From positions 1 through 30,642 of the IMG/VR virus record IMGVR_UViG_3300036779_000147: 30,642 bases of DNA. One strand, written 5' to 3'. Shown here piece after piece: positions 1-5,416 of this stretch; positions within the stretch are counted from its first letter, which is position 1, and each line of letters begins with the position of its first letter. The notes below the pieces were generated by a model that saw only the letters and a program-made list of their open reading frames with translations, did not search any database and was not told the DNA's origin. The position numbers were made by a program, and so were the translations under genes. The DNA comes from a virus (Duplodnaviria; Caudoviricetes).

Positions 1-846
1 GGCAAAGCACGGCGTGGCTGGTCGAGGCTGGCAGAGCAGAGCTGGTCTTGGCGTATCGGGCAAGGTCTTGCACGGCGTAGCGAGGCGAGGCTGGCTAGGC
101 AAAGCCGAGCACAGCGGGGCGAGTCGTGGCACGCCTAAGTCTGTCATGGCGAAGCGCAGCCGGTCGAGGCTGGCAGCGCTAAGCACGGCTCTGCGGTGCT
201 GAGCAGGACAGTGTCCGGCTCGGCACGGCCCAGCCGAGCGCGTCGAGGCTGGCTCTGTATGGCTTTGCGCGGCAGAGGCGAGGCGCGGCCGGTCGAAGCA
301 AGGCTGGCGGGGTTTAGCCTGTCTTGGCCGGGCTTGGCGTAGCGTCGCGATGCGTGGCTGGCAAGGCTGGGCTCGTCAACGCACGGCAAGTCGTTGCCGG
401 TCCTGGCGAGGCGCGGCGCAGTATGGCGAGGCCGGCGCGGCGCGGCAGCTCCGAGCAGCGCATTGCTCGTCGCTGCCCTGCTTGGTCTGGCTGGGCATGG
501 CGAGGCTGGCGCAGCAAGTCCCTGCGCAGCGAGGTGCGGCAGGGTAGGCAGTGTCCAGCACGTCACGGCGAGGCTGGCAGTGCGCGGCCCGGTGATGCTC
601 GGCACGGTAGGTCCGAGCTGGGCACGCCGTGGTCGGGCGTGGCGTTGCACGGCAAGGCTGGCGCGGCTTTGCTGGTCTTGGCGCAGCAACGCGTGGTTTG
701 GCGCGGCGTGGCGAGGCTGGCCTTGCATGGCACGTCCTGGCTGATCCGCGTTGGGCGAGCCCGGGCGAAGCGAGGCTGGCGGAGCGGAGCATGGCACAGC
801 CGGTCCAGGCGCGGTATGCCTCGGTCAGGCTGGGCAAAGCTGGCAA
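1..846 (+). repeat. Array of degenerate GGY-NN pentamers in 12 complete units (plus a partial one) separated by a 4-nt GGCT phase shift; truncated at the left edge
   Basis: Hand parse. Units start at 30, 93, 172, 251, 306, 360, 434, 508, 576, 660, 719, 778 and 842 (lengths 63, 79, 79, 55, 54, 74, 74, 68, 84, 59, 59, 64; 9 of 12 are 5n+4). Example unit 778-841: ggcGG agcGG agcAT ggcAC agcCG gtcCA ggcGC ggtAT gccTC ggtCA ggcTG ggcAA agct. Position 3 of every full pentamer in my parse is C or T, and the boundary consensus is C(G/A)AGGCTGGC. Confidence 0.95.
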
Positions 847-851
847 GCGAG

Positions 852-882
852 AGGGCGAGTCCTTCGGGACTCGCCCTTTTTT
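852..882 (+). terminator. Rho-independent terminator closing the array
   Basis: AGGGCGAGTCC-TTCG-GGACTCGCCCT is a perfect 11-bp stem with a C(UUCG)G tetraloop, followed by a T run that overlaps the stop of the convergent Cro-like gene. Confidence 0.93.
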
Positions 883-1117
883 AACCAAAGAGATCGGGCC
901 GTTGTACCTCACGCGGAATGCCGAACTCTTGTTCAATTACCCGCATATGTTTGAGCGGCACCAGCTTCCACTGAATAACCGCTTGTCTTGAAATATTGCC
1001 GCAAATCTCCATGACGCGCCCGATGCGATCGTGCGCCGTCAAGAATTCGATCACCTGTTCCGGCGTCTTGATTCGCTTCGCTGTCAGCGTCGTCGTGTTG
1101 AGCACACCGCGGGGCAT
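881..1117 (-). CDS. Cro/YdaS-like helix-turn-helix transcriptional regulator (78 aa)
   Basis: C-terminal part of the 881..2479 ORF, from the ATG at 1117: MPRGVL...ICGNISRQAVIQWKLVPLKHMRVIEQEFGIPREVQRPDLFG. The IS-QAV-QW--VP...IE---GIPR---RPDLF pattern is typical of Cro/YdaS-like phage proteins. Confidence 0.85.
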   Translation of the reverse strand: MPRGVLNTTTLTAKRIKTPEQVIEFLTAHDRIGRVMEICGNISRQAVIQWKLVPLKHMRVIEQEFGIPREVQRPDLFG

Positions 1118-1146
1118 CGGCTTTCCATCATTGAATAATCCACCGA

Positions 1147-1175
1147 AACATAGTGCGGCGATCGGCGATTTGCAA
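1147..1175 (-). promoter_or_regulatory. Putative sigma70-type promoter for the Cro-like gene
   Basis: Minus strand TTGCAA (1175-1170), 17-nt spacer, TATGTT (1152-1147), about 30 nt upstream of the ATG at 1117. Confidence 0.6.
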
Positions 1176-1177
1176 AT

Positions 1178-1204
1178 TCGACCTTGCAATTGTAGCAAGG
1201 TCGA
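1178..1204. promoter_or_regulatory. Inverted repeat, candidate operator in the divergent control region
   Basis: TCGACCTTGC-aattgta-GCAAGGTCGA has perfect 10-bp arms and a 7-nt spacer. It lies next to the palindrome ATTTGCAAAT (1168-1177). Confidence 0.6.
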
Positions 1205-1237
1205 GCTTACATCAGCGGATCGCAGAGAGAGGCGGCA

Positions 1238-2191
1238 GTGAAGAGCATTCAGTGGGACCATAATCCGGTAAGTGTGGGCGGCTGCTACGCCGGCATTCCA
1301 CTTGAAGAATACCATGCCGATTTGTGCGTTGGCCCGTCGGTGTCGTCGAGCGGCCTGCGGATCATCTATCACAAGAGCCCGCTGCACTTCTTCGATCAGT
1401 CGTATCTGAATCCATCTCGCGAAGAGCGTGACGAAGCCAAGGCCGATCGTGAATGGGCGGTGCTCGGCTCGGCCTCGCATAGTTTGCTGGTTGGAGGTGT
1501 CGGAAGTTTCCGCGATTCGTTCGTGATCCGTCCACGATTCGCCCCCGACCGCACCGGCCGTGCATGGCATGCATCGAATCACTCTTGTCAAGAGTGGATG
1601 ATCGCGCGCCATCGCGAGGGCAAGATGGTATTGACCGACGCCCAAGTCGAGGTCGTCAGAGGCATGGCGATCCAACTGTCCAAGCACCCGATGGTCGCCG
1701 GTGGCGTCCTTGATGGACTGATCGAGAGAAGTCTGATTTGGCGCGATCCTGAAACAGGAGTTTGGCTCAAAAGCCGGCCCGACGCGATCCCAACCGACTC
1801 GGGCGATGTCGCCGATCTCAAGACGACGCGCTCGGTGGTGATGAGCGATGTGGTCCGCACCATCGGCGAGCTGTCCTATCACCAACAGGCAGCGCTGATC
1901 GCCGACGGCCTCAAGGCCGTGTTCGACATCGAGATGAAGAGCTTCACGTTGGTGATGGTCGAGAAGACGCGGCCGTTCTGTGTGCGCGTTACCCCACCGA
2001 TGCATCAGGACGATATCGAAAGAGGTAGACGACAAAACCGCGTCGCGTTGCGCACCTTCGCCAACTGTCTGGAAAGCGGACGTTGGCCCGGTCCCGATCC
2101 CGGCGACGACAGCGGCCCACGTTCCCTGAACCTCTCGGTGCCGCAGCGCGAACGGATCGATGCGCGACTTCGAGTTGAGGGCATGATTTGA
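1238..2191 (+). CDS. recE: RecE/exonuclease VIII-like PD-(D/E)XK nuclease (DUF3799-type)
   Basis: Motifs EEYHAD...SVSSSGL...SP..F, GSASHSLL, IERSLIWRDPETGVWLKSRPD...VADLKTT, YHQQAA, VEKTRPF. GTG start after GAGAGG; RecT lies nearby. Confidence 0.88.
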   Translation: MKSIQWDHNPVSVGGCYAGIPLEEYHADLCVGPSVSSSGLRIIYHKSPLHFFDQSYLNPSREERDEAKADREWAVLGSASHSLLVGGVGSFRDSFVIRPRFAPDRTGRAWHASNHSCQEWMIARHREGKMVLTDAQVEVVRGMAIQLSKHPMVAGGVLDGLIERSLIWRDPETGVWLKSRPDAIPTDSGDVADLKTTRSVVMSDVVRTIGELSYHQQAALIADGLKAVFDIEMKSFTLVMVEKTRPFCVRVTPPMHQDDIERGRRQNRVALRTFANCLESGRWPGPDPGDDSGPRSLNLSVPQRERIDARLRVEGMI

Positions 2192-2197
2192 TGTCTC

Positions 2198-2635
2198 ATG
2201 GTCCAGTGGCCCGAGTGGCGTGTAGTTCGGCTGCGGGAGCTGATCGGCGACGGCAACATGTCGGCAGCCGAGATCGGCAAAGAACTCGGCGTGTCCAAAA
2301 ACTCGGTGGTCGGCAAGGCCGAGCGGCTTGGTCTCAGGCTCGCCGGGCATCGCCCACCGCGACCAAAGCCGAAGCTGCGAACCGTGGCACCACCGCCACC
2401 GCCGCCACCAATGCCGGAACCAAAGCCACCTCCGCCGCCCGATACGCTCACCAATCAATTCGAGGGCAGCACCGGTCACTATGCGCTGTTTGGGGTGCCG
2501 ATCGCCGGATGCCTGTGGCCAATCGGCGATCCGGCAAGCCAGGACTTCCGCTATTGCGGCGCCAAGCGGCAGGCATCATGCCCGTACTGCGCCGAGCACG
2601 CCAAGATGGCGTACCAACCGAGGAAAGACAGATGA
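2198..2635 (+). CDS. gcrA: GcrA-family cell cycle regulator homolog
   Basis: N-terminal W..RV..LREL..G.MSAAEIGKELGVSKNSVVGKAERLGL, Pro-rich linker, C-terminal CLWPIGDP...FRYCG....PYCAEHAKMAYQP. Confidence 0.92.
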   Translation: MVQWPEWRVVRLRELIGDGNMSAAEIGKELGVSKNSVVGKAERLGLRLAGHRPPRPKPKLRTVAPPPPPPPMPEPKPPPPPDTLTNQFEGSTGHYALFGVPIAGCLWPIGDPASQDFRYCGAKRQASCPYCAEHAKMAYQPRKDR

Positions 2636-2859
2636 CCGGTCTGCAGCTCTTCGCATTCCGCGCGCTGATCGTGCTGGCAACGCCAACCATAATCACATGG
2701 GCGGTCGTTGACCGACTGATCTCCGAATTCAAGTTGGGGTTTCGCATGGCATGGCTCGATGCGAGATCGGTGTGGGGCGATGCCTCCGATGCCTGGAACG
2801 ACGCCGCAACCATGACCTGGGCCGAGATGAAAGAAAAAGTGGAGAAGTCCCGTGAGTGA
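2632..2859 (+). CDS. Small hypothetical membrane protein (75 aa)
   Basis: ATGA overlap with the gcrA stop and AGGAAAG upstream. Hydrophobic N-terminus MTGLQLFAFRALIVLATPTIITWAVV. Confidence 0.7.
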   Translation: MTGLQLFAFRALIVLATPTIITWAVVDRLISEFKLGFRMAWLDARSVWGDASDAWNDAATMTWAEMKEKVEKSRE

Positions 2860-3802
2860 TACTGGCCAGACCCGTGAGCAGCGGCAATCGCTGCTGATTG
2901 ACTCCAAGCTCGACAGCGAGCGCATCGGCGAGATGACGATCTCCGGCTCGCAGCCGGGCGAGCTGGTCGGCGTCAAGTTCGCTTCGATGCTTGAGGTGAT
3001 GGAGTTCGCTAAGTTGATGGCGCTCGCCGACACGGCGGTGCCACCGCATCTGCGCAACAAGCCGGGCTCGTGTCTCGCCGTCACCATCCGCGCACTGCAA
3101 TTACAGATGGACCCATTCACCGTTGCCAATTGGAGTTACGAGGTCGAGCAAAAGGGCGTCAAGCGGATCAGCTATGAGGCGGCGTTCTACAACGCTGTGA
3201 TCCTCGCGCGCGCACCGATCGACGGCCCGCTCGAATACGAAATCCTCGGTGAGGGCGACGAGCGCAAATGCAAAGTGACGTTCACCTTGCGCCGCAGACA
3301 CAAGACGATCTCCTACATTTCGGAAAAGCTCGGCAAACTGCGACCTGGGCGCAACGAGAGCGGCACCATCAAAGGCTCACCGCTGTGGGAGAAAAAGCCC
3401 GAGGTGCAGATGATCTACAACACCGTGCGCGACGTGGCGCGGATTTACTTCCCACACGTCACCGCCGGGCTCTACACATCCGACGAGCTGGCCGACTTCG
3501 ACGAAGATCAGGTGACGATGGAGCAGCCGACGGCTGGCCTGCTGCAGCGCCTGCAGCCACGCGCCACCGACGAGGGCTTCAATCAAGCCACCACCGCCGG
3601 TCAGTTCGACGAGGCGATCCAGGCCGCGCGCGCGCCTGAGCCCGAGATCATCGAGCCGGAAAAGAAGCCACGCACCCGCAAGGGCGGTGCGACCAATGCA
3701 GCCACCGGTGACGACCCGGCGGCTGAGCAGGCGGCGTCCTCTACTGCCCCTCGTTCACAAGGGGACGCCGCCGAACCACAAGGAGACAAGAATGGCACGT
3801 GA
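2852..3802 (+). CDS. recT: RecT-like single-strand annealing recombinase
   Basis: VMEFAKLMA....VPPHLRNKPGSCLAV...ALQLQMDPFTVA...SPLWEKKPEVQMIY...ARIYFPHVTAGLYTSDEL, then an acidic disordered tail. Paired with the RecE-like gene. Confidence 0.85.
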   Translation: MSDTGQTREQRQSLLIDSKLDSERIGEMTISGSQPGELVGVKFASMLEVMEFAKLMALADTAVPPHLRNKPGSCLAVTIRALQLQMDPFTVANWSYEVEQKGVKRISYEAAFYNAVILARAPIDGPLEYEILGEGDERKCKVTFTLRRRHKTISYISEKLGKLRPGRNESGTIKGSPLWEKKPEVQMIYNTVRDVARIYFPHVTAGLYTSDELADFDEDQVTMEQPTAGLLQRLQPRATDEGFNQATTAGQFDEAIQAARAPEPEIIEPEKKPRTRKGGATNAATGDDPAAEQAASSTAPRSQGDAAEPQGDKNGT

Positions 3803-4196
3803 GCCGACCCCGATCCCCGACGATCTCATGCCCAAGACAGTGCCGGCTCGTGGCCTGTCATCCACCACGCTCGACAAGCTCGAAGACGAGATCGCCGAGC
3901 ACGTCAGCACCATCAAGACCACCGCAACCCAGGAGCAAGAGCTAATGCAGGATCGTCCCGCCGCCGCGCCGGCAACACCTTATGTGCCGGCAACGCCTTA
4001 CGCGCCGGCACCACGCCCGGCCACAGCCGTGATCCCGAACCAGCCGCAGCATCAATCGGCGTTGGATTTTCAATTCAACGGCAAGTCGCTGCGCGTCACC
4101 GCGACCTGCAACACCGACGCCGAAGCGCTCAGTTTGAGCGACCTGTTGACCAAGGTGGCGCCGTTTCTCGCCAAGGCGGACCCACCAAGAGAGTAA
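3792..4196 (+). CDS. Hypothetical protein (134 aa, Pro/Ala-rich linker)
   Basis: AGGAG upstream of the ATG at 3792; MAREPTPIPDD...; fits the operon tiling. Confidence 0.75.
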   Translation: MAREPTPIPDDLMPKTVPARGLSSTTLDKLEDEIAEHVSTIKTTATQEQELMQDRPAAAPATPYVPATPYAPAPRPATAVIPNQPQHQSALDFQFNGKSLRVTATCNTDAEALSLSDLLTKVAPFLAKADPPRE

Positions 4197-4198
4197 CC

Positions 4199-4585
4199 AT
4201 GGACGCCAAGATCGCCGCGATCGGCCGCCAGCTCGCCAATGCCCTCTCACTGTATGCCCACGAGCGCACGTCGCCCGCTGGCGTGCAGGCACAGAAGGAC
4301 ATCGCCCGACTGCACTGGGAGCTGGTCACGGCGGTCAGCGACGAGAACACTCTCATTGAGGGGACTATGGCCGCGGGCAAGGAGGTGGCACCGGTAAGCC
4401 CGCGCTTCATCCGCGGCGATGCCGTCCAGAAGACCACGGGCGACTATACCTTCAACGGTCGCGTGGCGTTCTTCGGCTACAAGCTCGAAAGCCACGTGCT
4501 GCGCTACGTCATACAGGATCGGCGCGGCCTTCTCTTGATCATGAACGAGCAGCAACTGCGGACAGCGCCAGATGAATCACATTGA
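4199..4585 (+). CDS. Hypothetical phage protein, possible C-terminal SH3-like beta domain
   Basis: Operon tiling. RFIRGDAVQKTTGDYTFNGRV...RYVIQD..G.L.I.NEQQL looks like small phage beta-barrel proteins (inference). Confidence 0.7.
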   Translation: MDAKIAAIGRQLANALSLYAHERTSPAGVQAQKDIARLHWELVTAVSDENTLIEGTMAAGKEVAPVSPRFIRGDAVQKTTGDYTFNGRVAFFGYKLESHVLRYVIQDRRGLLLIMNEQQLRTAPDESH

Positions 4586-5057
4586 GGATCACGTGACTAC
4601 CAAACCAACAATGAGCGGGCCGTTCGGCCGGGCGTGGCGCGTCGATACCCCTCGCGTTCCCGATGGTAGCGATGTCATCGTCGACTTCTATGTCGTCGAA
4701 TGTCCGGGCGCGCATCCGGCGTGGCACTCGTACATCATGTTTGTGATGAACCTCAAGCCGCGACCGGGACTCGAAGATGCCGCGATCTATCTGCCCGACG
4801 CCAGCCATGAATTCCATATCTGGGCGCTCAATCCCGAGATGCCGCGACAGCCGATCATCGAGGCCGGCGAATGGTTCGGCCGGGTGCTGCAGCCGATGAA
4901 CTTCGCCGCCCAGGTGTGCATGAGCCAACTCGAAGTCGAAACCAAGCTCTACGCCTCGGTCAACGATATTCTGCATGGCCGCATCTCACCAGACACCGAC
5001 TACGTGCGGGCGTGGGCGCAGCTGTGGGGCGACAACATGCTAAAGGATCGCCGATGA
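4572..5057 (+). CDS. Hypothetical phage protein
   Basis: 161-aa ORF overlapping both neighbours; globular composition (PGAHPAWHSY...ISPDTDY..AW). Start uncertain. Confidence 0.75.
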   Translation: MNHIEDHVTTKPTMSGPFGRAWRVDTPRVPDGSDVIVDFYVVECPGAHPAWHSYIMFVMNLKPRPGLEDAAIYLPDASHEFHIWALNPEMPRQPIIEAGEWFGRVLQPMNFAAQVCMSQLEVETKLYASVNDILHGRISPDTDYVRAWAQLWGDNMLKDRR

Positions 5058-5416
5058 CCGACAAACCTAAGCTGCCGCCCGAAGTCGAGATACACCAGAA
5101 GCTCGCCAACGAGATCGTCGCGCAGGTCGGGCCGTTGATGTTGCGCTATCCACCGCATGCGATCGGCGCAGCGCTGGCGACGCTGACGGCGCAGTGGCTC
5201 GCCGGCTATCGCGGCGCGCGCGGACAACAGGGCGCCGCCGCCAGCGCCACAAAATTACGCGCCATCATGTTTGCGAACCTCGTGAGATCGGTAGTGGGCG
5301 AGCTGCCAGAGATCATGCAGGAAGTCGACGCAGCCGACTTCATCGACGCGCTCATAGCGCTGGATTTAACCGCAGCGGCGCCGGAGATCGGCGCGCCTAC
5401 CATTGGAGTATTTTGA
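5054..5416 (+). CDS. Hypothetical protein (120 aa)
   Basis: ATGA overlap at 5054 with AAGGA upstream; MTDKPKLPPEVEIHQ... Confidence 0.72.
   Translation: MTDKPKLPPEVEIHQKLANEIVAQVGPLMLRYPPHAIGAALATLTAQWLAGYRGARGQQGAAASATKLRAIMFANLVRSVVGELPEIMQEVDAADFIDALIALDLTAAAPEIGAPTIGVF

Follow-up and report, generated by a model that had tools for sequence, protein, structure and literature searches.

Positions 1 to 845 (plus strand) of the window, that is, of the whole viral contig of 30,642 nucleotides (30.6 kb) that was analysed, are judged from their sequence to be the 3' two-thirds of a staggered VIPR guide array; the 5' end of the contig lies inside this array, which starts upstream on contig L042 (5262-5551). 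The preferred reading, with a probability of about 0.72, is that a word repeated along the array is the junction of staggered units, that the one-base slip within it stops the protein filament, and that the units are loaded, and probably also excised, as individual guides. Regarding the parts of this reading, the slip is very probably the boundary between guide units, as comparison of related arrays indicates; a filament stop at the slip would follow from the published structure with one protomer per pentamer; and on balance the RNA would be cut at the slip. The unit boundary, already proposed in a sequence-only reading of the same DNA, is borne out by unit-length spacing, by turnover of whole units in relatives and by target matches confined to units, with one exception (locus L049). 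The layout itself has been published, and comparative support is added here: the family counts turn a boundary that had been drawn into one backed by spacing, turnover and target extent.

Known VIPR systems

VIPR is a CRISPR-related RNA-guided DNA silencer described in 2026 (bioRxiv 10.64898/2026.04.26.720920). According to the available text of that preprint, a guide comprises 9-16 repeats and finds its target by a 1-nt skip rule, with the skipped base at the wobble position; relaxed repeats are permitted in its methods, and 'staggered arrays with overlapping vrRNAs' are mentioned. The legend of its fig. S18 places the guides of such arrays at 1-nt overlapping positions, the end of one being the start of the next. 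This text and legend contain neither a turnover analysis nor a junction sequence, which may be given in the accompanying figure and data files. The literature searches listed no paper devoted to the processing of staggered arrays, and the word 'stagger' is absent from the available text of 10.64898/2026.04.26.720927 and 10.64898/2026.10.15.759431. Guide maturation and acquisition are topics that the available text of 10.64898/2026.04.26.720920 and of its companion preprints does not address.

With the staggered arrays as published in that text the present array shares a phage vipr gene with one accessory gene and a GGY/NN array, the 1-nt offset of units, 9-16 repeats per unit, and the 1-nt skip code with a wobble skip, the last being seen here in the family set. 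It differs from them in that only 54% of its triplets are GGY and in its preference for (G/A)A as the NN pair preceding the slip. Shared with the type II VIPR of SUSP1, as far as described, are a homologous Vipr (E 6.5e-7), the G-loop D-W-R motif that grips GGY, and the gene order vipr, vap, array; the guides of SUSP1 end in a structured pseudoknot tail of ~40 nt, whereas the units here are tail-less and abut. Unlike ribozyme-interspersed VIPR arrays, the array has no sequence between its units and no hammerhead ribozyme.

Array locus and phage context

Contig L042 was retrieved by a search with an alignment of genes lying upstream of look-alike arrays. Its end overlaps the window, positions 1-141 of which correspond to L042:5552-5692 (99.3%) with a single difference, T/G at window 127 / L042:5678, which concerns one of the variable NN bases in unit 93-171. 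L042 carries vipr (3818-4693, 291 aa), the product of which matches the SUSP1 Vipr structure PDB 36pp (E 6.5e-7), followed by a vap (partner or accessory) gene (4697-5221, 174 aa, PHROG 15946), homologues of which come after vipr in related loci. The array starts 40 nt 3' of the partner gene and has five further junctions on L042, so that across both contigs it extends from a 3-pentamer stub to a hairpin and has 18 junctions, which delimit 17 units. With its 17 units complete and its junction word uniform, the locus is suited as a test system. Pfam had no family for the vipr and vap proteins tested; the structure model of a related protein from locus L003 (pLDDT 67, nine sequences) matches Csm3/Cas7-type RAMP chains.

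The vipr-vap-array operon (L042:3818-5692) diverges from a small YdaS/Cro-like regulator gene (L042:3333-3602), which sits where a repressor might be expected. Downstream of the array (window 996-3802) lie genes for an exonuclease VIII-like protein, GcrA and RecT, and tail genes are also present in the window; GcrA suggests an alphaproteobacterial host. A search for relatives by way of the downstream exonuclease confirmed none. Treating the two contigs as a circular pair was rejected, the far end of the window being without a match in the L042 contig.

Array layout and junction word

Window 1-845 parses as pentamers, each a constant triplet plus two variable bases (GGY/NN), with 155 of 171 steps measuring 5 nt. 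Among the triplets that are not GGY, AGC (27 of 171), GTC (18) and TGC (15) were counted. Given the 54% share of GGY, the triplet pocket of the Vipr that serves this array may be looser than that of SUSP1, for which perturbations of GGY are reported to have abolished silencing. Long open frames overlap the array on both strands, as is expected for a G+C-rich repeat.

All 13 copies of the word C(G/A)A-GGCT-GGC that had been listed for this stretch, three variants among them, were found, each on the plus strand. The form CGAGGCTGGC stands at 23-32 (where the 4-nt step is GGCT and the next unit begins at 30), 86-95, 165-174, 244-253, 501-510, 569-578, 712-721 and 771-780, and CAAGGCTGGC at 299-308 and 653-662; the variants are CGTGGCTGGC at 353-362, CGAGGCCGGC at 427-436 and, at the final junction immediately 5' of the terminator-like hairpin, CAAAGCTGGC at 835-844. 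The strict word C(G/A)AGGCTGGC is fitted by 10 of the 13. Every copy (13/13) coincides with a 4-nt step, and thus breaks the 5-nt register by one base as had been claimed; a 14th look-alike at position 13 is in register and hence no slip. In 5000 shuffles with slip number and pentamer register held constant, the loose motif occurred on average 1.1 times (maximum 5) against 13 observed copies, and the strict motif 0.4 times (maximum 4) against 10. The description of the motif as the sole long conserved word also holds, since every word of at least 9 nt that occurs at least four times overlaps it; GGCGCGGC is the only frequent 8-mer of the window array unrelated to it.

Nine of the 12 intervals between successive motifs have a length of 5n+4, two (units 30-92 and 508-575) of 5n+3 and one (unit 251-305) of 5n. 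The units span 54-84 nt, mostly 11-16 pentamers with one unit of 17, and abut with a 1-nt offset and no spacer, there being 13 four-base steps in the window and five upstream on L042. It is highly improbable that these slips arose from chance indels, or from misassembly, in a repeat of low complexity: internal slips do occur and the assembly broke within the array, but the 13 copies compare with a shuffle mean of 1.1, identical slips recur in separately assembled contigs, and the spacing is regular over 530 units of related arrays. The motif shuffles and the unit spacing refute this explanation.

Unit length and slip direction in related arrays

The Vipr-alignment search led to 139 fetched loci, of which 107 had an array above the score cut-off and 103 at least one 4-nt step. 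Together with earlier loci, 129 of 162 passed the cut-off, and 123 arrays remained after six duplicates had been dropped. With equal parsing penalties, these arrays contain 829 steps of 4 nt and 58 steps of 6 nt. Between canonical slips, 447 of 530 units comprise 9-16 pentamers (25% under random placement) and 20 of 530 fewer than 7 (41% under random placement).

Several members of the survey deserve separate mention. The 145-pentamer array at L032:2484-3214 lies upstream of vipr and lacks 4-nt steps; its four 6-nt steps and single 7-nt step may represent +1 punctuation within the same Vipr group. Loci L017-L022, from cultured Gordonia and Mycobacterium phages, carry vipr with short staggered arrays, several of them in records annotated as hypothetical proteins, and are ready systems for the mapping of RNA ends. 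Short pentamer tracts in L001/L005 (oriented 5107-5191) and L012, whose retrieved flanks gave no match to vipr, are possible solo guides.

Conserved part of the junction word

The word C(G/A)A-GGCT-GGC is conserved in the window array, but not as a signal of the family, in which only GGC-N-GGY is general. The most frequent slip sequences (n=829, 123 arrays) include GGCAGGC (317), GGCTGGC (172), GGCCGGC (71) and GGCAGGT (54). The slip base N is specific to the array, 68 of 90 arrays having 80% or more A or 80% or more pyrimidine, and it clusters on the Vipr tree, where the L042 Vipr belongs to a well-supported group of 17 members, 13 of which have arrays of pyrimidine type; this clustering is no proof of co-evolution, because kin share labels and the first searches favoured the pyrimidine type.

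Upstream of the slip, (G/A)A precedes 15 of 17 junctions in the combined L042 and window array, compared with 26 of 191 other NN pairs (p 2e-10). The same enrichment is seen in arrays of the clade that were found by protein alone (31/59 before the slip, 109/838 elsewhere), and it is lacking outside the clade (78/395 and 1093/4656, respectively). The final NN pair before the slip, largely fixed to (G/A)A in this subclade, is likely to be a handle and not part of the targeting code.

Unit turnover between related arrays

That orthologous arrays would gain or lose whole units at the motif was confirmed in part. Twenty of 37 breakpoints fall on a slip in both arrays (8% expected), and the other 17 lie elsewhere. 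The count omitted array ends and two overlapping contig pairs, and 50 ends were de-duplicated to give the 37, which derive from 16 array pairs. These pairs, which mostly have GGCAGGC junctions, fall into five sets of closely related arrays; the events are therefore not independent, and the nominal p makes the case look stronger than it is. Blocks common to related arrays often start on the 4-mer and stop at the next GGC.

Direct evidence of turnover for the window array itself is, at the level of contig sequences, thin and mixed. A single contig from another sample (depth 2.6) covers window 241-437 with three differences and no gap, and its match begins at 241, i.e. at the junction at 244-253. 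Two other related contigs part from the window array within unit 576-659, at 641 and 644, and 60 extra letters are present in one of them, a length that is not 5n+4.

The slip might be a scar left in the DNA by unit insertion or recombination, with no role in RNA. This would account for the turnover of whole units at slips and would suit the exonuclease VIII-like and RecT genes just downstream, but it leaves unexplained both the depletion of pieces shorter than 7 pentamers (20/530) and the excess of -1 over +1 steps (829 against 58), and a 4-nt step is incompatible with the one-protomer-per-pentamer register as published; such a scar is considered improbable.

Decoded targets

Decoded with a 1-nt skip and compared with the fetched loci, 600 units yielded seven strong matches and shuffled units none; skips of 0, 2 and 3 yielded 0, 0 and 1 matches, respectively. 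Nine units score at least 12 (2.0 expected), with matches that span the unit, and the units next to them match no better than by chance, L049 excepted. In that locus (5118-5245, compared with L105) a match of 17/18 is followed by 9/10 one codon past a GGCC-GGC slip, as though the 4-mer were read as GG+CC and accounted for one codon; this either contradicts the boundary reading or reflects an internal slip that looks like a junction. Of 792 windows of 10 pairs lying within units, 14 reached at least 18/20, compared with 2 after shuffling; of 410 lying across slips, one did, compared with 3 after shuffling. These counts overstate the strength of the comparison because the windows overlap. Regarding windows that span internal slips, none of 62 reached 18/20, too few to judge. 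Codon orientation gave no separation (rho 0.25 within units, 0.09-0.18 across junctions).

For the window array, four units (576-659, 172-250, 93-171 and 360-433) were searched in viral contigs. The first 12 NN pairs of unit 576-659 (plus strand), decoded with a 1-nt skip, match two small helix-turn-helix genes at 24 of 24 letters, and its last four pairs mismatch. Over the full unit the matches in these genes, L165 (Pfam HTH_17) and L171, amount to 25 and 26 of 32, antisense and with the skip coinciding with the wobble base; the translation of L171 is similar to that of L165, the one of the two that was scanned with Pfam. The other seed matches of this unit (6/8) reached only 22-24 of 32. The target was found in none of four genomes and in none of 401 genomes from the order of an alphaproteobacterial Vipr carrier. 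Since the two genes are presumably actinobacterial and none of these 401 genomes matches, the match is regarded as a lead only, and the natural target of the unit as uncertain. Units 172-250 and 93-171 had no matches in viral contigs; one match of unit 360-433 failed to extend (20/28). No self-targets above shuffles were seen in the L042 and window contigs.

In three related loci the first array unit (L120:5015-5058, L095:4595-4653 and L098:4595-) decodes to the REDMVR motif conserved in vipr. Compared with the vipr genes of other loci, the agreement is 16/16 for L120, 20/22 for L095 and 16/18 for L098; the best match of the L120 unit within its own locus is 13/16. Anti-vipr guides have been reported for SUSP1-family phages, according to the available text of 10.64898/2026.10.15.759431.

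Transcription and proposed processing

The array is followed at 853-882 (plus strand) by a predicted intrinsic terminator with a 10-bp G+C-rich stem, a UUCG loop and six T (-28.6 kcal/mol, z -5.4), which a consensus terminator scanner did not call. Because staggered arrays have neither a tail nor a ribozyme, the slip is the sole visible signal in them. Rfam returned no matches in the window and L042, consistent with the lack of a tail and of a hammerhead ribozyme. A hairpin in each unit as a cleavage signal was rejected, as 357 units fold slightly worse than register-keeping shuffles (mean z +0.19, +0.12); the folding of two junction-centred windows is unremarkable.

In the proposed mechanism, a single transcript would run from vipr through the hairpin at 853-882. 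One Vipr protomer would coat each pentamer, as published for SUSP1, in the structure of which one protomer binds one repeat (10.64898/2026.04.26.720927; PDB 36pp), and the filament would break at each 4-nt step, a pentamer one base short. The exposed bond would then be cut or trimmed, for which a host RNase, Vipr and the partner protein are candidates, and each unit of 54-84 nt would be loaded as a separate guide. The slip word likely doubles as the crossover point at which units are gained, lost or moved.

Alternatively, the slips could be boundaries without cutting, the array remaining one long RNA that bears a string of Vipr filaments uncoupled from each other. The spacing, the turnover and the unit-confined matches fit this equally well; there is no tail, ribozyme, Rfam family or selected per-unit hairpin to direct a cut, and the sRNA-seq in 10.64898/2026.04.26.720920, as far as its available text goes, confirmed only ribozyme arrays and single vrRNAs. 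The same text, however, reports array guides of SUSP1 as separate RNAs of ~100 nt, its fig. S18 legend indicates processed units for staggered arrays, and the array-specific slip base (68/90 arrays) hints at recognition, so that an uncut array is held to be unlikely. In a doubtful extension of the preferred reading, Vipr, as an ancestral RAMP, would itself read the 4-base step and cut the array, and the slip word would be a RecE/RecT-like landing site for guide swaps; if true, a single missing base would allow arrays to be processed and guides to be acquired with no need for Cas6 or Cas1. Cutting by Vipr at the slip, if it occurs, would permit one-base punctuation in the encoding of multiplex guides.

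In Class 1 CRISPR systems, the pre-crRNA is processed by Cas6 or Cas5d. What the present array has in common with these systems is that it is bound by RAMP proteins and divided by a conserved word, the place where whole units come and go; in contrast to them, the window showed no CRISPR repeats or cas genes, the code has gaps, and the nuclease acting at the slip is only putative.

Internal slips

An extra internal 1-nt slip, noted earlier for units 30-92, 251-305 and 508-575, is present in all three (plus strand). Those in unit 30-92 (ATCG at 55-58, present also in the overlapping contig L042) and in unit 508-575 (GGTA at 543-546) are -1 slips; the one in unit 251-305 (GGCAGA at 272-277, within the match of the other-sample contig) is a +1 insertion, not a -1 slip. 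Secondary boundaries at these positions, which the same reading had considered, are disfavoured, because the resulting pieces would be undersized at 5-8 pentamers, a depleted size class. The three units may be working or decayed guides. Across the family, 107 of 475 units have internal steps other than 5 nt, and a slip is thus not always a boundary. Many internal slips consist of GGA, GGT or GGG and a further base; these could be GG+NN with the pyrimidine lost and the code intact. Internal 4-nt steps are frequent in the arrays of L080 (13 of 13 units), L112, L117 and L078-L084, and some of them recur in orthologous units, a hint that the code has a variant of this kind that is tolerated or regular.
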